Source of the DNA: Candidatus Poribacteria bacterium
Lineage (GTDB): Bacteria > Poribacteria > WGA-4E > UBA9662
Assembly: GCA_046582655.1 (NCBI GenBank)
Contig: JAYGDX010000259.1
Span: 5,250 to 69,249, forward strand
Length of the DNA stretch: 64,000 nt
Reading direction: 5' to 3'
In this document: in pieces, positions 15,272-34,737 of the stretch
How the letters are laid out: each line of letters begins with the position of its first letter
How positions within the stretch are numbered: position 1 is the stretch's first letter
Translations under genes and position numbers: made by a program
Notes under the pieces: model-generated
Told to the model about the DNA's origin: nothing
Database searches by the model: none
What the model saw: the letters and a program-made list of their open reading frames with translations, nothing else

Positions 15272-15780
15272 TCAATGCTGACGTAGTGGATGATCTACTA
15301 GCAAAGACCAATCCGGTTGATCTTCCGGATTGTTGAGTGCTCCATGGGCGTTTCGGATAACTTGGCGTTGATTGTCGTACCAATCGCTGTAACTTGTGGC
15401 AGGATGCACATCGTCGTTTCGCATGACTAGTAGTTTTCGGAGTGAGTCATCTAGTTTTCTCCTGATTTTTCGGACTTTCGGCTTTTGCATCAAATTGTGC
15501 ATCTGAAGCGGATCGGTTTCTAGATCGTACAATTCTGTCAATCTATCTCTCCAACGTGTGTAGTTATGATGTGTTGTCCGAACACTATGTCATTCCTAAC
15601 CATCGACTCAGTAGTTGTGAGTGACACCAAAGTTCATGGTTAAGACAGCTTCCTGCTCAAACGTGCCTGACCTGCCCAGCCGAGCGTCTGAGAAATCGTA
15701 TCCTTCGATATTACGCGGAATTGGTAGATCTAAAAAACCATTTAACGATGGAAACAGATCAAGAGTCATGGAAATAAATT
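15272..15780 (-). pseudogene. Sulfatase C-terminal remnant (the N-terminal catalytic two-thirds is missing and the rest is frameshifted).
   Basis: One minus-strand frame gives ...TLDLFPSLNGFLDLPIPRNIEGYDFSDARLGRSG... (the sulfatase DLFPTLLDLAGIP...GRSL region) and stops at 15603. A second frame (ORF 15272..15541) gives NYTRWRDRLTELYDLETDPLQMHNL, the sulfatase ELYDL.DP.E..NL C-terminal motif. Upstream sequence is occupied by the end of gene 15893..18115. Confidence 0.6.
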
Positions 15781-18094: not shown

Positions 18095-18433
18095 AGTTAG
18101 TCTCCGTTTTGGCATCTAAATCGTGGTGTTTCAGAAACAGCATCTGCACCACCTATCTTTCGGGGTCAACGTTGATCTTCGGCACAAAATATGATTCCCG
18201 TGGAATCAACCATACAATTAAGTTGCAGTAAATGCCAAATGCACCCAATTCACTTTTAAGTTAAATTACATTAATTCGTTCAGATTGTCTAAATTGGCAT
18301 GCTGAAGCAGGATAGCCCCTTGACCTGGAACAAGGTAACCAGATTGATCGATGCTTTAAACATCATATGGTTGGTTCGAACGTGGACCATGAATTAGCTA
18401 CTGTTCCCTTCTGGATCAAAGAAAAAAGATGGG

Positions 18434-20262: not shown

Positions 20263-21327
20263 ATGACAGCGGGATCTCTATCGCTGATCGATGCCGACGT
20301 GCATAATTACACTCGCTCGGTTGACGATTTGATGCCGCATTTGTCAGAGCGATGGAAGGCCTACATCGTCCAAGGCGGGTTCAAAATGCCGGGGGTGAGC
20401 TTGTATCCGAAAGTGTACGCACAGGCTGCACGACGTGACGCGATTCCCTATGAGGGTGGGGTTGCTGGCTCTGAGCCAGAATTTGCAAAAGAACAGCTGC
20501 TCGATATGTGGGGAATTGACTACGGAATCCTGAATCCGCTGATCGGTGTGCCGCAGATCAAGAACCCCGACCTCGGACGAGCTTTGATGCGAGCTGTCAA
20601 CGACTGGACAAAGACTGACTGGCTCGATTCTGATCCGAGGTGGCTTGGCTCAATCTTGGTCCACCCTGGTGATCCGGAAGGGTCAGCGAAAGAAATACAT
20701 CGTCTCGCAGATGACAGGCGTTTCGTCCAAGTACTGCTGATGGCTCGCTCTAGCATGCCCTATGGAAAGTGGCAGATGGATCCTATCTATGAAGCTGCGT
20801 GCGGAGCCGAATTGCCAATTGGGATTCACTTTGGTGGAGGGGGCGATGTTCCGATCACAGCTGTGGGATGGCCATCATATTATATCGAGGACCACACGGG
20901 AATGGTACAGGCTTTTGAGAGCCAGGTGATCAGCTTAGTCTGTGAAGGCACCTTCGTCAGGTTTCCTAAATTGCGGGTCGTCCTGATCGAAAGTGGTTTC
21001 GCCTGGCTGCCAGCACTGATGTGGCGTCTCGACCAGAACTATCGTGGGCTGCGTGATGAGGTGCCATGGCTTAAGAAACTACCGAGTGAGTACATTCTGG
21101 AACACTTCCGAGCGACAACGCAGCCGATGGAAGAACCTCCAAATCTACAGCATCTCGTGCAGATTCTAGATATGATCGGTTCGGACGATTTCCTAATGTT
21201 TGCGACGGATTATCCTCACTGGGACTTTGATGCACCGAATCAGGCAATTCCGAACGTGATCACGGGTGAATTACGAGAAAGAATTATGTGGAAAAACGCT
21301 GCCGTGTTCTACGGGCTGGGGTCGTAA
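20263..21327 (+). CDS. Amidohydrolase-2 family (ACMSD-like) metal-dependent hydrolase.
   Basis: The 354-aa ORF shows LIDADVHNY near the N-terminus, the Asp/His-rich TIM-barrel segments GIHFGGGG and FATDYPHWDF, and the overall length and pattern of PF04909 proteins. Its TAA stop abuts the ATG of the next gene (TAAATG). Confidence 0.85.
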   Translation: MTAGSLSLIDADVHNYTRSVDDLMPHLSERWKAYIVQGGFKMPGVSLYPKVYAQAARRDAIPYEGGVAGSEPEFAKEQLLDMWGIDYGILNPLIGVPQIKNPDLGRALMRAVNDWTKTDWLDSDPRWLGSILVHPGDPEGSAKEIHRLADDRRFVQVLLMARSSMPYGKWQMDPIYEAACGAELPIGIHFGGGGDVPITAVGWPSYYIEDHTGMVQAFESQVISLVCEGTFVRFPKLRVVLIESGFAWLPALMWRLDQNYRGLRDEVPWLKKLPSEYILEHFRATTQPMEEPPNLQHLVQILDMIGSDDFLMFATDYPHWDFDAPNQAIPNVITGELRERIMWKNAAVFYGLGS

Positions 21328-21699
21328 ATGCCTGTATCTAGCCAGAATCACGATGTTGGGCAAGTCGACGCGTTCGAATCAGGAAGACCCTACGTCGTTT
21401 GTGTGGCAGGCAGGGATGTGGTTCTCGTCCGGCGGGGAAATGAGTTCTTTGCGATTCGGGACGTGTGTCCCCACCACGGAGCGAAACTATCCGATGGCCT
21501 GTTGACAGGAGAAGTATCAGCTAGCCGGCCTGGCGAGCAACCCGAACTGCTGCGTAAGGATGAGTTCCTAGTGTGTCCCTGACATGGTTGGAAGATTGAT
21601 GTTCGTACGGGGTGTTCATCGCTAGAGCCGGATTGCATCAGGGTAAGACGGTATGGCGTTCACATCGAGGGGGGACGTGTTCTTGTGGCTCTCTCGTGA
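21328..21699 (+). pseudogene. Rieske [2Fe-2S] ferredoxin (NirD-like, about 123 aa) interrupted by an in-frame TGA at the conserved Trp of the CPWHGW box.
   Basis: ORF 21328..21582 contains Rieske box 1 (CPHHGAKLSDG) and ends ...LVCP-TGA (21580-21582). The same frame continues HGWKIDVRTG...YGVHIEGGRVLVALS to a TGA at 21697-21699. A single TGG to TGA change would account for this. Confidence 0.7.
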
Positions 21700-22100
21700 A
21701 AACAAGATAATTTGAATCGACTGACGAAACTCGAATTCCCATGGCTTCAATTCCAACTGGTGATGAAATCGTCCACTTGGAAATTCTCCAGCATATGGTT
21801 CATTTCATATCGGCTCTTGACCCCCTGAAAAATGGTTAGTCGCTACTTTGCTCGATACCTGAAAATTTAGAGGTTAAGCAGAAAGGCAAGAACTTTCATG
21901 TTGTTAGACATGCAGTGGTGAATAAAATTGGGTTAGTGCTGTCCAACCATCGCAGAAATTCGTTAAAACCGGCATGAGGATGAAAACAAATATTGGGTAT
22001 CTGTTGAGCGTAAAGTATTCGGGCAGTCGAGTTCTATGAAGTAGCTCCAGTTTGAAATCGAGTATCCGCTGATTGAATACCGGCATGGCACCTCATCCAA

Positions 22101-22232
22101 CTACTCAGAGGTCGGAGGGATGTCCTGCCAGTCTACCCAAGGGGCATGGTCTCTAGCTTCCAACTCATGGTGCAGGCGTTGAGCGAACTCTATATCTTTA
22201 CGCAAATAAGAGATGAATACGTCGGACATCAT
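22101..22232 (-). pseudogene. TIR-domain N-terminal remnant (43 codons then TAG).
   Basis: The minus-strand translation from ATGATG at 22232 reads MMSDVFISYLRKDIEFAQRLHHELEARDHAPWVDWQDIPPTSE. This is the classic DVFISYSRKD...L...G..VWvDwedI start of bacterial TIR domains. No TIR continuation is detectable in any frame downstream. Confidence 0.5.
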
Positions 22233-22501
22233 TTAGTTGACCTCAAGCATACAGCATATCGGCATTATCAGTTCAAAACCAAGATTTCATACTTTGCTTT
22301 TTCCTTGGCAGTCAACTGAGGGGTGGCTCGACTTTCAGTGATTTGCAATAACTCTTCAATGTCTGTAATGTAGATTTGGACAATGCCATTTGCTCTCTTT
22401 GATATTCGATTAGAAAAGAAGCCCATGGGAGCTAAGCAAGGATATACAAAGTTAGATTGGAAATCCCAGTTTAACTGGAAGTACTTGAGAAGGGGAATAC
22501 C

Positions 22502-23082
22502 ATGCCGGGAAATCCTATTTTTGTGTTTGCAGTCTTAATTTGCTTGATGGCAAGTGTGTCGTGTGCTTACGAACATGCGGGAAATATAACTGGCTGGAAC
22601 CTCTATGGGACATGCCAGAATGAAATAACTTTTAACTGTACAAACCAACAAATAATAAAAATAAATATTTTAACCGACAATATATTTCGGGTGAGATTCT
22701 CCGCCGATGGGTCACTACCAGCTTCAAGGATGATTGGACAATGGAATCTTGTACGTTCGAACAACGGTTTTCCCACCCCGACTTTACTGCTGTGGATGAG
22801 GAAAAGGCTGTTTTGATAAACACAGCAGAACTCGAGATAAAAATAGATAAAAGTCCTTTCCTCATTAGCATTTTCGACAGAGAAAACCGCTTAATAGCTA
22901 AAAAAGCGCTTCCCTGGGAATGGGCAGCGATGGTGATGCCTATTTACAAATGGATTAGCTTGCTGATGAGCACCTTTTTGGTGTGGTTGAGGGACTCGGT
23001 GCGATAAAACGAGATGTTCCTTTTGAAGCAGCGAAAATTTCAAGCATAGAACTGCATGGGATAGAACCCAAAGAAGGGTGAT
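22502..23082 (+). pseudogene. GH31-like (alpha-glucosidase/xylosidase-type) N-terminal remnant, frameshifted and truncated.
   Basis: Three successive reading frames carry the fragments. Frame A (22502..22816) has a lipoprotein-like signal plus IIKINILTDNIFRVRFSADGSLPAS. Frame B (22741..23007) has DKSPFLISIFDRENRLIAKKALPWEW. Frame C (22971..23082) has HLFGVVEGLGAIKRDVPF (compare YGLGE). The fragments end where the converging MFS gene begins. Confidence 0.45.
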
Positions 23083-23097
23083 AACTCTGGGCCAAAC

Positions 23098-27134: not shown

Positions 27135-27908
27135 TTAAACACTAGCAATATATCCTCCATCCACAACTAATGATGTCCCTGTAATCCATTCAGCATCATC
27201 TGAGGCGAGAAAAACTGCGGATCGCGCAATATCCCTCGGTAGACCAAAACGCGGCAAAGGGGTTCTTTGTCGAACTTCTTCAATCTGATCCAGCGTGAGA
27301 TAGTCTTGAATAGCGGTCTCAATATAGCCCGGGCATATAGCGTTAACGGTGATGTTTTCTTGCGCGACTTCCAGCGCCATATCCCGAGCCATATTGACGA
27401 CCGCAGCCTTAGCTGGAGCGTATGCTGGTCCTGCGCCGCCTCCGTAGGCGTGGACAGAAGCAATCTGAATTATCCGTCCATACTTAGATTTTCTCAAATG
27501 TGGAATAGCAATTTTTGTAGCAACAAAGATAGAACGCAAATCGACACCAACCACTTTATCCCAGTCAGCAATTGAAATTTCTTGGCTGTTTCCGGGTATG
27601 TGTATACCCGCGTTATTGACAAGTATATCCAGCCCACCAAAATGTTCCACCGTTTTCTGGATCAGGAGATCAACCTGGGAGTCATCAGCCATATCTGTTT
27701 GAACAAACAAACCTTGGGCACCGAGTTTCTCAATTTCTTCGACCGTAGGCGTTATTGTATTTTTTTCGTGATATTTACCACGACTTGGAGCCTCTTGAAT
27801 ATCAGTTACCACGACTTGAGCTCCTTCACGAGCGAATTCAGTTGCTATCCCTCGACCGATTCCCGAACTCCCTCCGGTTACGATGGCAATTCGATTCTCT
27901 AGCAGCAT
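27135..27908 (-). CDS. Short-chain dehydrogenase/reductase (SDR) family oxidoreductase.
   Basis: The cofactor motif TGGSSGIGRG, the NNAG motif and the catalytic YxxxK (YAPAKAAV) are all present in the 257-aa ORF. Confidence 0.9.
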   Translation of the reverse strand: MLLENRIAIVTGGSSGIGRGIATEFAREGAQVVVTDIQEAPSRGKYHEKNTITPTVEEIEKLGAQGLFVQTDMADDSQVDLLIQKTVEHFGGLDILVNNAGIHIPGNSQEISIADWDKVVGVDLRSIFVATKIAIPHLRKSKYGRIIQIASVHAYGGGAGPAYAPAKAAVVNMARDMALEVAQENITVNAICPGYIETAIQDYLTLDQIEEVRQRTPLPRFGLPRDIARSAVFLASDDAEWITGTSLVVDGGYIASV

Positions 27909-28261: not shown

Positions 28262-30741
28262 CTAGAATTGCACCGATATAGATGCATTAATTCTGCGTCC
28301 AAAACCATAAAATATCTTTGTTGTTTCTGCATTATGTTCTTTCCCATCAATTCCATCACTGGCATAGGCAGTATCAAGTAGGTTTAGGATATGCAGACCG
28401 AAGACTAGATTATAACTCGACAGCTCCATACTGTAACCGGCGTGTAAATCAAGCAATGAAACAGAGTCTAATTTATATGCGTCATCCCTTGTCTTGTTAT
28501 TTCTGTTTTCAGGATTAAAGGCAGCATAGTGGTTATCGAAGTATTTAAGTACGCCAGTAATCCCTAAATCCGCAATTGGAGTTAGATTAATCCTTCCAGA
28601 AACTTGCGTTTGAGGCGCGTCACCCACATGCAGCCCATCAGAATAGATTTTAACATCGTATGTGTCTTTACGTCCGTAATCATCTGTTACTGTGGCAGCG
28701 ACGTCTCCACTCCAAACCCAGCTTCCAATTAACATTGAGCCTCCTAACGAAACTAATTCATTTAGTATGAATAAGCCATCAAGCTCTATGCCGCTGTGGT
28801 TGGCATTCAGTCCTTGAATGTTGTAGATGTTTCAACCGTCATCTTTCCCTTTGCTAGTTCTTACGAGTGCTTTGTCCTGCCATACTGTATAGTAGTAATC
28901 TATATCCACGATATATTTACTTGAACGATAACCCGTACCTAATTCAAAAGCTGTGATCTTTTCATTCTTAGCTTCCGGATTAACCGTATTATTATAATTC
29001 AAGTAAACATTATGGAAGTTAGGCGCAATTGATAAACTGCCGATATTTCCGAACACATTTATCTGAGAGTTAACGTTATAGTTAGCACCAACCTTTGCAG
29101 CGTATCCAGGGAAATTGGCCGTCTCAGACATTTTCTCTTCCGGTTCGTAATTGAAAGGATCCTCCCTCTGGTATTGAGTGTTTGAAAAAGCCAACGACCT
29201 GAAGGCTGACAGCGTATCCGTCTTATATTCAGTTTGTCCAAATTCCCCAATCCATTTATTGTAGCCGGTATTGAAATAAGCGATTTTATCCCCAACTTTA
29301 GCGGCGTTACCATCTGGTACATTTTTATCACTGTAATCAACGTAGTAATCTCCACCGAGCAAGTTTTGAACCTCTCGATAGTGAATGCCAGAATAAGCTC
29401 GGGCATCAATTCCACCACTTAATGTTATTTGATTTGTCAACAAGTGATTGAGCGATGAGATAACCCCATACCAGTTATGATGGTTTACCGATGCCCGAAT
29501 GATATACTTCGAGCGTTTTTCAGACTTCGAAAACATATGTTCCATCGTCCCCATGTTTGGGATTGATGTATTTCCAATTTTTTTCTCATCATCCCCATCA
29601 TCCCACCTTAGTATAACCACGTGAGTTGAGTGGCCCCGTACCACCGCCACGGCCATTAGAACCATAGATACTGTAGATAGCTTTGCTTTATTGCCAACCT
29701 TCCAATACCAGTTCAAGTTATAAACTGGTTTGTGATAATAGTTGGTACGACTGTTGATCAACCATTTTCCACCGACCTTTTTAAGTAACTGAATATTTCC
29801 ACCAAACAACGCGCTGGAAATGAAGTCCATAGACTCACCACCATAAGATCCTTCTTTCATTAAATTTCTTGCATCATCGCCTACATATCCCCAACCACTT
29901 CCTGTGGAACCGCTATTAACTTTGCGGTCGTCTGGGCTACCGTATCTAGTATCGTAATTAAAAGATTCCCAGTCCTTGGCAGTGTGTTTATTATCTCCGT
30001 CGCGTTGCCCATGCTGCTGAGGCGCTCCAAGAAGTGTAAAATCAAATGAATGATTACCAAAGGTCTTATTGGCGGTGAAAAAGTAAGAGTACGCATCCGT
30101 CCATGTTCCATCTACATAACCATTCCCGGTTTTCTTTTGTAACAGAAATGATGTTGCGATGTCGTTATTCAATTTACCGGTGGAGTAAGACAAAGTGGTC
30201 TTCAAAAAACTTTGAGAACCAAATTCTTGTTTAAAGGTACCACCCTTTTTCATATCAGCAGCAGAGGTAAGGACGTTGATAGTTCCACCAACCGAAGCAA
30301 TAGCGAAGTTACTGGCTCCTAAACCTCGTTGCACTTGAATAGAATTAGTAACATCACTCATTCCATCCCAATTGGACCAGTAAACCCAGCCATTTTCCAT
30401 ATCGTTAACAGGGACTCCATTAATTCTGCCACGTTTCGCTGATTAAATCCGCGAACATTAACTCGGCTGTCTCCTGATCCACCATCCGACATCGAAGCGT
30501 AAACGCTAGGAGTCTCACTCAATATCATTGGTAAATCTCGCGAAGCGAGCCTGTCACTTAAATCAGATTTGCTAACATCAGAAAAAGCAACAGGAGTTTC
30601 CCTGACTGTGGCTCGATTGGCTATAACACTAATTTCTTCCAATTCTATTTCTGTAGGTTCTTCGACATTTTCTTTTTGTCCAAAAGCCGAGAATGTAGAA
30701 ATCATTGACACAAAAAAGATTAATATGGAGAGCTTTTTCAT
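28262..30741 (-). pseudogene. TonB-dependent receptor (about 810 aa) disrupted by a -1 frameshift near 30419-30425 and an in-frame TGA at 28832-28834.
   Basis: Three ORFs are collinear. 30358..30741 has the signal peptide plus plug (RVNVRGFNQRNVAE). 28832..30400 has the barrel and starts MENGWVYWSNWDGM. The join requires one extra nt within ttaatt (VAEL|NGVPVNDMENGW). The barrel ORF ends ...KGKDDG-TGA, and the same frame continues NIYNIQGLN...GSMLIGSWVW (ORF 28262..28735), ending with the typical terminal ...ISVQF. Confidence 0.75.
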
Positions 30742-32577: not shown

Positions 32578-32967
32578 TCAATCTGAATCGCACACGTCGG
32601 AGTCGCACACTGCCCGGCTCAAGCGGTACCGATTCTTGGCAATAATCAAGTAAAAAATCTTACAAATCCTGTGAATTCCCGGAACAACATAGATCCACGC
32701 AATATATTGGGACCAACGCAGACGTCGATAGATTTGGTAAATGGCATCAGCCCCGCAAAATGCTTTACCCTGTTGATCAATAAATCGCATTCCTGCATGT
32801 GATTGGAATTCAATGAGTTGTGGATAGGCAATATACAGGTCGGAATCCTGGTTGGGAATATAATTGAATTGTCCCGCTTTGGCTTGGCTCCGAATTCTTT
32901 GTATGGCGTTGATGCAAAAATTGCATTGGCCATCATAGACAATTAAAGGCTTTTCTGGTTGACGCAT
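32578..32967 (-). CDS. Thiol-disulfide oxidoreductase DCC (DUF393) family protein.
   Basis: The N-terminal motif PLIVYDGQCNFCINAI is the signature of DCC-family proteins. The start is taken at the internal ATG (MRQPEK...). The C-terminus ends in an imperfect duplicated tail, VCDSDVCDSD. Confidence 0.8.
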   Translation of the reverse strand: MRQPEKPLIVYDGQCNFCINAIQRIRSQAKAGQFNYIPNQDSDLYIAYPQLIEFQSHAGMRFIDQQGKAFCGADAIYQIYRRLRWSQYIAWIYVVPGIHRICKIFYLIIAKNRYRLSRAVCDSDVCDSD

Positions 32968-33030
32968 ATTTTCCTCATTATGTTTTAGGGCCAAGGATTT
33001 AGGTGCATACTGAAATACAAGTGTTTCATA

Positions 33031-34737
33031 TCACATTTTTTCTGGTGCCGAAATTCCTAACAGTTTCAAGCCGTTCGAAATCACAATCTGTACGCATCTA
33101 ACAAGCACAAGTCGCGACTGCGTTAAATCCGGATGATCCATGTCCAACACGCGAAACTTATTATAGAATGTATGAAAGTGTGATGAAAGCTCGTACAGAT
33201 AATTGGGGACACGGTAAGGTTCACGCTCTTCCGCAGCATTCAAAATGACTCCCGGATAGCCTGCCATTTTTTTAATAATTTGTGCCTCTTCATCAACGGT
33301 CAGGAGATTAAGGTCGACTTGATTAATCGGCAGCTGATCAATGTTTCGATCTTTCATCTCACGAAAGATACTGCAACACCTTGCATGTGCGTACTGGACA
33401 TAGAAACTTGGGTTATCATTAGCACGTGTGACAGCCAGCTTGACATCGAAATCGAGGTGACTGTTGTTGGTTCGATTCAGAAAAAAATATCTGGCCACAT
33501 CAACTGCGAACTGTTCTCCTACTGTCTCCGCCAGTTCATCTATCAACTGGTTTAGGGTATAAAGATGACCTTTTCGTTTTGACATTTCAACGCGGCTTCC
33601 ATCCTGATGAACTAAATTAACCTGTTGGACAACAAGTCCTTCAAACCGGTCGGCACTATATCCAAGGGCATTGATTAGATGATCAAGATGAACGATGTGC
33701 CCTTGATGATCAGGTCCAAGGATATCAATCAGCAAATCAAAACCGCGATCGAATTTGTCACGGTGATACGCGGCATCTGGAACGAAATAGGTGAACTCGC
33801 CATCACTTTTAATGACAACACAATCCTTGTCATCACCAAATTCAGTCATTTGAAACCAGATGGCGCCCTCTGCTTCATAAAGTAGTTTCTTTTTCGTAAA
33901 GATTTCTATAATTTGTTCAGGTTTCTTAGTGTCACGAATTACCTGTTCACTTGTCCAAACATCAAATTCAACACCAAATCGTTTCAACGTTGACTTCTGT
34001 CCATCTAGTAAGCGCTGAATCCCGATGTCTTTGAACTTATCGATTCGAGCAGCTTCATCTAATTGTAAATATTGATCTCCTTCACTTTCAACTATCAATC
34101 TAGCTATATCAATCAGATACTCGCCATGATAACCATCTTCTGGGATTTTTAGTTCTTCTCCGCCTAGCAACTGACGGTAGCGAACATCAATTGACGCGCC
34201 GAGGCGTTCCACTTGCTTACCAGCATCATTAACATAGAACTCACGAATTGCATCGTAGTTAGCAACATTGAGCAAATTTACGAGTACATCCCCAACCGCT
34301 GCTGCCCGGCCACTAACAATATTGAGAGGTCCTGTGGGATTAGCACTTACGAACTCCACCAGAATTCGCTTTCTTGCACCGTCCTGCGACCGACCGTAGC
34401 CTTCACCTTGGTGAATAATGTGTTCTAATGTTTTGTAAAGACAATCTTCTGAGATGAAGAGGTTGATGAAACCTGGTCCAGCAATCTCGACTTGACGTAT
34501 CAATGGATCGTTAGCCAAATGGTTAACGATAATCCCAGCTATCTGCCTTGGCGGCATTTTCGCAGTTTTTGACAGCGACATGGCAATCGGTGTTGCGATA
34601 TCACCATGCTCCGGATTCTTTGTCGGAGAAAATACAATGTCGGGTATAATATCAAGAGAGATTTCAGCATGGTTTATTGCCTGTTGAATGGCAGCTCTTA
34701 GTACTTCGCTGACCCGCAGCCTAACTTGGTCAATCAA
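33031..34737 (-). CDS. argS: Arginine--tRNA ligase.
   Basis: The 568-aa ORF has the class-I HIGH region (ANPTGPLNIVSGR) and a KMSK-like segment (MSKRKG). The C-terminal DALR anticodon-binding region ends ...LLGISAPEKM. The start is TTG. Confidence 0.95.
   Translation of the reverse strand: MIDQVRLRVSEVLRAAIQQAINHAEISLDIIPDIVFSPTKNPEHGDIATPIAMSLSKTAKMPPRQIAGIIVNHLANDPLIRQVEIAGPGFINLFISEDCLYKTLEHIIHQGEGYGRSQDGARKRILVEFVSANPTGPLNIVSGRAAAVGDVLVNLLNVANYDAIREFYVNDAGKQVERLGASIDVRYRQLLGGEELKIPEDGYHGEYLIDIARLIVESEGDQYLQLDEAARIDKFKDIGIQRLLDGQKSTLKRFGVEFDVWTSEQVIRDTKKPEQIIEIFTKKKLLYEAEGAIWFQMTEFGDDKDCVVIKSDGEFTYFVPDAAYHRDKFDRGFDLLIDILGPDHQGHIVHLDHLINALGYSADRFEGLVVQQVNLVHQDGSRVEMSKRKGHLYTLNQLIDELAETVGEQFAVDVARYFFLNRTNNSHLDFDVKLAVTRANDNPSFYVQYAHARCCSIFREMKDRNIDQLPINQVDLNLLTVDEEAQIIKKMAGYPGVILNAAEEREPYRVPNYLYELSSHFHTFYNKFRVLDMDHPDLTQSRLVLVRCVQIVISNGLKLLGISAPEKM

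Follow-up and report, generated by a model that had tools for sequence, protein, structure and literature searches.

Amidohydrolase-related dinuclear oxygenases (AROs) are O2-activating Fe2 or Mn/Fe monooxygenases, which were first found bioinformatically via their adjacency to small Rieske ferredoxins (rFds), namely AibG and SfbR, proposed to act as electron mediators (PMC10811679, PMC7782822). PMC13154177 describes AROs by two signatures, an N-terminal D-x-H and a C-terminal D-x-P-H-x-[D/E], and gives in its Table 1 a low-potential (Mn-preferring) subclass, L-ARO, with a hydrophobic gamma1, a hydrophilic gamma2 and an aromatic gamma4 residue; this subclass is the one reported there to co-occur with rFd partners. 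An AlphaFold3 (AF3) model of SfbO4:SfbR4 in the same source places the ARO gamma5 residue between the two metal centres, where it makes a pi-stack with Trp85 on the surface of SfbR; mutation of gamma5 abolishes the EPR perturbation (PMC13154177). Electron transfer from the rFd to the ARO is proposed in this literature on the basis of the EPR results and the AF3 model.

The locus described here lies in a 64-kb stretch of DNA from Candidatus Poribacteria, the whole of which was analysed and is called the window. Similar to the SfbR/AibG type (PMC10811679, PMC13154177, PMC7782822), it has a small Rieske gene directly downstream of an ARO gene, with the ligand boxes C-P-H ... C-P-W-H in its intact form. 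Unlike the SfbR/AibG type, it comes from Poribacteria and has a premature stop at the interface Trp.

A Rieske ferredoxin gene beside a putative oxygenase gene

The features of the upstream gene are as follows.

20263 to 21327, plus strand: ARO gene (amidohydrolase-related dinuclear oxygenase, 354 aa); its TAA abuts the Rieske ATG
20296 to 20304, plus strand: N-terminal metal-ligand motif D12-V13-H14, with a hydrophobic gamma1 (Val); motif as given in PMC13154177
21208 to 21228, plus strand: C-terminal signature D316-Y-P-H-W-D321 followed by F322 (gamma5); gamma4 is Trp

A profile search assigns the product of this gene to PF04909 (E = 3e-36). Searched against the PDB, it aligns over its full length with 8SM7 (E = 5.9e-88), SfbO (8SM6, 1.6e-75) and AibH (6M1W/8FUL, about 1e-67 to about 1e-72), and also with 8SM9 and 8SM8. 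Both ARO motifs are present; the C-terminal one (D316-D321) agrees with the definition, which asks for about 200 or more residues ahead of it, and its DYPHWD aligns with the DYPHWD of 8SM6 and 8SM7. An earlier sequence-only reading of this DNA had taken the gene for an amidohydrolase-2; it is instead a putative ARO oxygenase, with the Rieske protein as its putative electron mediator. That reading contained neither the oxygenase identity of the neighbour nor the interface role published for the Trp (PMC13154177).

The Rieske product has 123 aa when intact, below the 250 aa by which rFds are delimited in PMC10811679, and its gene directly follows the PF04909 gene, in line with the shared transcription unit that is asked for there. 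The ARO of the window shares D-V-H, D-Y-P-H-W-D and an aromatic gamma5 with the low-potential AROs SfbO (8SM6), 8SM7, 8SM9 and AibH2 (6M1W/8FUL). To judge by its gamma1 (Val), gamma4 (Trp) and gamma5 (Phe) residues, it may belong to the L-ARO subclass. F322 (gamma5) is the predicted contact for the Rieske Trp85.

Relatives at 71%, 54% and 42% identity, Hyphomicrobiaceae among them, keep the two genes as a pair in which the stop of the first abuts or overlaps the start of the second. A promoter and terminator scan around the ARO-Rieske pair gave nothing beyond shuffle expectation. The ARO gene is surrounded by genes for sulfatases, PhyH-type dioxygenases, an MFS transporter and an SDR, a neighbourhood that hints at catabolism of sulfated or branched organics. 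In the contigs that hold the 71% orthologue (L008-L011) and in L044, all Poribacteria-like, the pair likewise lies among PhyH-family genes, three to four per 12 kb, and in L044 a PhyH gene is located directly 3' of the Rieske gene.

The opal codon in the second cluster-binding box

Within the Rieske gene the following features are of relevance.

21328 to 21699, plus strand: rFd gene, 123 codons when intact, interrupted here at codon 85; natural terminator TGA at 21697-21699
21328 to 21582, plus strand: 84-aa open ORF of the window allele (protein P0031, identical to NCBI MFP6723098.1)
21466 to 21474, plus strand: first cluster-binding box, C47-P-H49
21574 to 21585, plus strand: second cluster-binding box, C83-P84-(W85/stop)-H86
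21580 to 21582, plus strand: premature opal codon TGA; the polymorphic base 21582 is A here and G in the intact allele (Trp85), and the next base is C (UGA-C)

The start codon of the gene at 21328 directly follows the TAA of the ARO gene (TAAATG, 21325-21330), as the sequence-only reading had described. The frame reads MPVSS...CPHHGAKLSDG...EFLVC83-P84-TGA-H86-G-W88-KIDVRTG...LVALS and stays open for 38 codons past the premature TGA. Translated with the stop masked, it matches PF00355 with 50.6 bits (gathering cutoff 20.3, E = 1.9e-13), so that the Rieske identity proposed earlier is upheld. The same reading had suggested an alignment with orthologous Rieske proteins; in this alignment the public orthologues of 123 aa all have Trp at the stop position and are collinear with the read-through product to its last residue. 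The profile match together with the collinearity past the stop indicates homology across it, not a chance open frame, and the claim of a TGA at a conserved Trp in a frame that runs on to the C-terminus is thus borne out.

Trp85 is kept in all orthologues down to 42% identity. The sequence-only reading had called this Trp invariant, which applies to close relatives, all of which carry it. However, among 20 aligned homologues the more distant Rieske ferredoxins show R, L or A, and the closest solved structure to the Rieske protein, CarAc (3gce), reads CPLH. By this alignment the Trp of the CPWH box is a feature of the clade and is not invariant among Rieske ferredoxins.

The best PDB sequence matches of the Rieske protein are ferredoxins of dioxygenases, namely CarAc 3gce, NDO 2qpz, TodB 3dqy and BphF 1fqt/2e4p, which have the same fold and ligand motif. 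In contrast to the window protein, these lack an insertion of about 17 residues between the boxes, have L or another residue in C-P-x-H, and partner Rieske oxygenases, whereas the Rieske protein of the window partners an ARO. For comparison with the published interface, SfbO was rebuilt from the 8SM6 alignment, which led to a natural protein of 97% identity (P0164), and the adjoining Rieske gene (L047:5133-5498) was read. It translates as ...IIKC83-P84-W85-H86-QW..., and this SfbR orthologue aligns end to end with the window Rieske protein, CPWH on CPWH (E = 4e-19), but at only 31% identity. On this alignment the TGA codon of the window is the published interface Trp85, mapped on the SfbR orthologue and not on UniProt A0A540VG88 itself. 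The position of Trp85 at the ARO interface accounts for its conservation in ARO-linked Rieske proteins and not in dioxygenase ferredoxins.

The two alleles differ accordingly in their cluster site. The TGG allele (P0030) has all four ligands of the C-x-H ... C-x-x-H motif and the surface Trp of C-P-W-H, as have all close orthologues, whereas in the window allele the set is incomplete: the 84-aa fragment, as translated from the window, retains C47, H49 and C83, and after C83-P84 the stop takes the place of the Trp, with the ligand H86 and the C-terminal strands missing. A second, compensating Rieske copy was looked for in the 64-kb window and none was found.

Descent and distribution of the opal allele

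All sequences compared in the following are metagenome consensus sequences, which may be chimeric between strains. A sister population (L031-L040, mostly from TARA and other open-ocean assemblies) is 98.3-98.9% identical to the window. Its codons 25, 85 and 103 are CGT, TGG and CGC, and more distant orthologues read likewise. Because TGG is present in the sister population and in all orthologues, TGG is ancestral and TGA derived; on these alignments the TGA allele is younger than the split of about 1.5% from the sister population. Two further codons of the gene are derived in the window.

21400 to 21402, plus strand: derived Cys25 (TGT); ancestral Arg (CGT) in the sister population; first step
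21634 to 21636, plus strand: derived Cys103 (TGC); ancestral Arg (CGC), kept in L004 and the sister population; second step

The alleles can be placed in a series of single steps.

R25/R103/W85, ancestral: protein P0032, 14 contigs
C25/R103/W85, by R25C (21400 C>T): protein P0033, 11 contigs
C25/C103/W85, by R103C (21634 C>T): protein P0030, 18 contigs
C25/C103/stop, by W85* (21582 G>A): protein P0031, 12 contigs

In this series W85* comes last, after R25C and R103C, and the three derived changes are nested. All nine TGA loci that could be retrieved have A at 21582 on the C25/C103 background, and TGA is never seen on either of the intact-allele backgrounds with Arg103 (P0032 and P0033; about 25 contigs). 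Its confinement to the most derived haplotype points to a mutation within the genealogy, not to random miscalls.

The Rieske gene differs from that of the sister population by 0 synonymous and 3 nonsynonymous changes, compared with 9-10 synonymous and 4 nonsynonymous changes in the ARO gene and 7 and 1-2 in the next gene. Fisher p for the Rieske gene versus its neighbours is 0.05 (ARO), 0.02 (ARO and hyp321) and 0.10 (all five neighbouring genes), which hints at relaxed constraint on the Rieske gene, though the statistics are weak.

The ARO protein is found, 100% identical, in 44 index blocks of public contigs. Six of the contigs that encode it match the window at 99.95-99.97% identity over 11 kb, each with TGG at codon 85; these stem from data on hydrothermal plumes of the Lau Basin or their background (Abe and KiloMoana occur in the contig names; BioProject PRJNA234377, cited in PMC7367891). 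Counted over the Rieske gene, seven contigs other than the window have TGG and are otherwise identical or nearly so, and over 11-20 kb their identity to the window is 99.8-99.97%. An exact-sequence lookup places the 84-aa product on 17 contigs. The 10 places listed come from 10 different samples, namely JGI Lau_10095404, ANAN14-1 SAMN02727535, three SANC23-1 samples, ERZ1643211, ERZ23796794, contig ICM0366MP2231 and two Logan runs. The assemblies with the TGA allele were made by different pipelines (JGI, MEGAHIT k127, SPAdes NODE, Logan, GenBank MAG), and MFP6723098.1, the GenBank MAG protein with the same 84-aa sequence, is labelled Candidatus Poribacteria. An exact-pattern DNA scan of the collections metagenome_contigs and genome_contigs for allele counts gave 0 matches, these collections apparently being without this population.

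The sequence-only reading had offered, as one option, a very recent TGG to TGA nonsense mutation. A nonsense mutation in this direction is supported by TGG as the ancestral state. However, "very recent" has to be qualified for an allele that is widespread, occurs on several flanking backgrounds and is not private to one assembly; the opal allele is a widespread segregating allele. The SNVs 21952 and 22593 are in incomplete linkage with 21582, and over 17 kb the window is nearer to one TGG contig (4 SNVs) than to two TGA contigs (7 and 15 SNVs). Recombination may have carried the TGA allele to several backgrounds, or the contigs are chimeras of strains; since consensus contigs from mixed strains can be chimeric, we do not press the recombination reading.

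The most divergent TGA carrier, L013 (99.81% identity to the window), has lost 12 bp in frame from the SDR gene (27376-27387), which leaves 253 of 257 aa, and 2 bp between genes at 18400-18401. Among other variants of the Rieske gene, P0039, on one contig of 1.5 kb, has TGG in place of the natural TGA terminator, which lengthens the protein to 180 aa, and P0040, on a single short contig, is frameshifted after residue 95; each is a rare variant or an error. L007 (protein P0001, a 579-bp contig and cluster representative) has 8 base differences from the window, five of which are G-T or C-A transversions that lead to unusual residues, for example D52Y within the conserved RD-CPH box. The private differences of L007, all of them transversions of this type, are probably low-coverage or oxidative-damage errors. 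The lengths given for a DUF8034 gene, which range from 617 to 740 aa, are a matter of gene calling, and L003 (660 aa) and L005 (733 aa) have no sequence difference there.

The 1.4 kb downstream of the Rieske gene (21700-23097) contains no intact gene, only remnants. These comprise, on the minus strand at 22101-22232, a TIR_2 fragment (E = 1.5e-8) that covers positions 1-38 of a profile of 122, and, on the plus strand, two short ORFs at 22502-22816 and 22741-23007, which lie in adjacent frames; the second of these ORFs has a weak match to a GH31 N-terminal domain (E = 0.017). Two sites at which the close contigs vary, SNVs 21952 and 22593, fall within this region. Elsewhere in the window, an 89-aa ORF (15272-15541, minus strand) matches only the last ~36 positions of SGSH_C (25 bits, below cutoff) and is probably the remnant of the C-terminal part of a sulfatase gene.

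Probable loss of function and the alternatives

The opal allele occurs in many independent metagenomes beside the intact one, it is derived from TGG, and TGA is a normal terminator in this DNA. Most probably, we are dealing with a real, naturally segregating loss-of-function or strongly hypomorphic TGG to TGA allele at Trp85 of an rFd that partners an ARO. We infer the loss of function from the loss of the ligand. Termination at codon 85 would leave an 84-aa fragment without His86, the fourth [2Fe-2S] ligand, and without about a third of the fold. With H86 missing, the Rieske cluster would not be ligated and no [2Fe-2S] cluster would assemble on the fragment, which would deprive the oxygenase of its dedicated electron supply. 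The Rieske gene appears to close a two-gene unit, with only remnants downstream, so that a polar effect is unlikely. Low-level insertion of Trp at UGA-C by near-cognate tRNA-Trp may make the allele leaky and not null. The succession R25C, R103C and W85* amid gene remnants may represent an accessory oxidation module that is drifting toward loss in a part of a deep-sea Poribacteria population, be it under drift or under selection. Four of the five TGA contigs covering the ARO gene have it intact, which suggests that a loss of the module would be at an early stage or partial, and that the module is not obviously abandoned. In one TGA contig, L016 (JGI Lau_10095404), 20 bp are absent from the ARO gene (20537-20556), causing a frameshift, with an ATC microhomology at the junction; found in this single contig, the deletion may be a genuine second hit to the operon or may have arisen in assembly. 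An apparent split of the ARO gene in L028 is a scaffold gap of Ns and no lesion.

In kind, this is an ordinary population variation in a new member of the ARO-rFd family. Like other segregating nonsense alleles and young bacterial pseudogenes, it involves one transition in a non-essential accessory gene, with the intact allele coexisting and decayed genes nearby. However, this one comes from many independent environmental assemblies and not from isolates, and affects a residue with a specific published role. A gene inactivation would thereby be caught segregating in an uncultivated deep-sea bacterium, with the lesion on the very Trp proposed as the bridge between the Rieske cluster and the metal site of the ARO. 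Populations in the wild would then contain a natural knock-out of an ARO electron mediator, which could be used to test how far AROs depend on their Rieske partner. For annotation, the gene is to be treated as a strain-variable pseudogene or truncated allele, not as an error, a selenoprotein or a sign of an unusual code, and the neighbouring "amidohydrolase" as a putative dinuclear oxygenase.

It is also possible, albeit unlikely, that the stop is leaky or tolerated, such that a near-cognate tRNA-Trp reads UGA-C and restores Trp85, and that the resulting hypomorph is tolerated or maintained by selection. This would explain the wide distribution of the TGA allele, which is found on several backgrounds. 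UGA is the leakiest stop codon of E. coli, where it is read by near-cognate Trp and Cys tRNAs and where the fourth base modulates termination (PMC5373646), but what holds for termination in E. coli may not hold for Poribacteria. Since the codon of His86 dictates the C that follows the stop, the UGA-C context is no evidence of design. Poole et al. (1995) reportedly found UGA-C to be the weakest termination signal of E. coli. The part 3' of the stop is unchanged in all carriers, with no further change at 21583-21699 in any of them; however, the intact 117 nt carry no weight, since no change is expected at a diversity of only ~0.05%. No SECIS-like or stimulatory fold was found in the 74 nt from the TGA (MFE -15.9 versus a shuffle mean of -18.7 kcal/mol, z = +1.0). 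A stop at codon 85 was found in no other lineage, which leaves programmed readthrough unsupported. Readthrough had been named as an option in the sequence-only reading; the leaky context speaks for it, the missing downstream structure and the missing stops in other lineages do not, and the balance settles it in neither direction.

The ARO protein is identical across dozens of assemblies. One may speculate, at long odds, that the opal allele persists at appreciable frequency across ocean basins in one of two ways: either readthrough at UGA-C is frequent enough to feed a catalytic electron shuttle, or the ARO has no strict need of its dedicated Rieske partner in vivo. If true, either would let nature itself test, by genetics, the ARO:rFd electron-transfer model, which is still speculative.

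We also regard as quite improbable that the loss is adaptive, with a null allele that is favoured, through iron saving or the removal of a costly oxidation, and is rising rather than drifting. The three successive radical derived changes with zero synonymous ones are consistent with this idea, as is the TGA allele being the consensus in many samples, and one TGA contig also has the 20-bp frameshifting deletion in the ARO gene. However, this deletion is confined to the one contig, and the counts are too small to tell selection from drift.

Very little favours a sequencing, base-calling or assembly error in the window. The window differs by a single base from its closest contigs, the site lies in a G/C-rich context (CCCTGGC), and the six Lau Basin TGG contigs, if taken alone, would suggest an error. 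Against this, 17 contigs, drawn from at least 10 samples and put together by several assemblers, have this base in their consensus, and it is absent from both Arg103 backgrounds, in about 25 contigs. The base-call or assembly error considered in the sequence-only reading is thereby refuted, and we retain the segregating nonsense allele as the explanation of the stop.

A second in-frame TGA, which that reading had noticed in a TonB receptor gene, is real (28832-28834, minus strand) and precedes the last 157 codons of the gene. However, it stands at a Leu position in a variable loop, where distant relatives have D, P or a gap, and in a gene that is itself decayed. All close contigs share this TGA except L013, which has TTA (Leu); the nearest relative, P0044 (80% identity), also has Leu. 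The TonB-dependent-receptor-like gene lies in pieces at 28262-30705 (minus strand), whereas its relatives have 840-970 aa with CarbopepD_reg and Plug domains. Its Plug ORF (30358-30705) is in a different frame from the barrel ORF (28832-30400), with an overlap of 43 nt, and the gene also appears to be frameshifted.

The stop codons of the 42 long ORFs in the window are TAA in 23, TGA in 14 and TAG in 5, and TGG codons number 313. ArgRS, PriA, FtsW, MurC and FtsQ all close with TGA where their domains are complete, and the Rieske gene also has TGA as its natural terminator. In ArgRS the DALR domain reaches position 117 of 117 on the last residue before the TGA, and in PriA the PriA_C domain reaches 95 of 95. 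The earlier statement that TGA is a genuine stop here and recoding unlikely agrees with these counts. Similar to selenoprotein genes and to genes read with UGA-reassigned codes (tables 4 and 25), the Rieske gene has an in-frame TGA in a conserved redox motif; unlike them, it has no SECIS that could be found and no homologues with Cys, and it lies in a window where TGA serves as a terminator throughout. Neither tRNA genes, suppressors included, nor Rfam families were found in the 64-kb window.

Although the codon lies beside metal ligands and TGA read as Trp would yield the wild-type protein, recoding of TGA as selenocysteine, or its reassignment to Trp or Gly, has a negligible probability as judged from this one 64-kb window, because the two in-frame TGAs stand for two different amino acids (Trp in the Rieske gene, Leu in the TonB receptor), housekeeping genes and the Rieske gene itself end in TGA, Trp is regularly written TGG, P0039 runs on once its natural stop is TGG, a SECIS-like fold was not found, the aligned homologues have Trp at codon 85 and never Cys, and a TGG allele coexists in the same population. 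The TGA at 33031-33033, considered as a third candidate for read-through, is the true end of ArgRS; directly after it, in the same frame, follows a separate gene for a DCC1-like thiol-disulfide oxidoreductase (32581-33030, minus strand).
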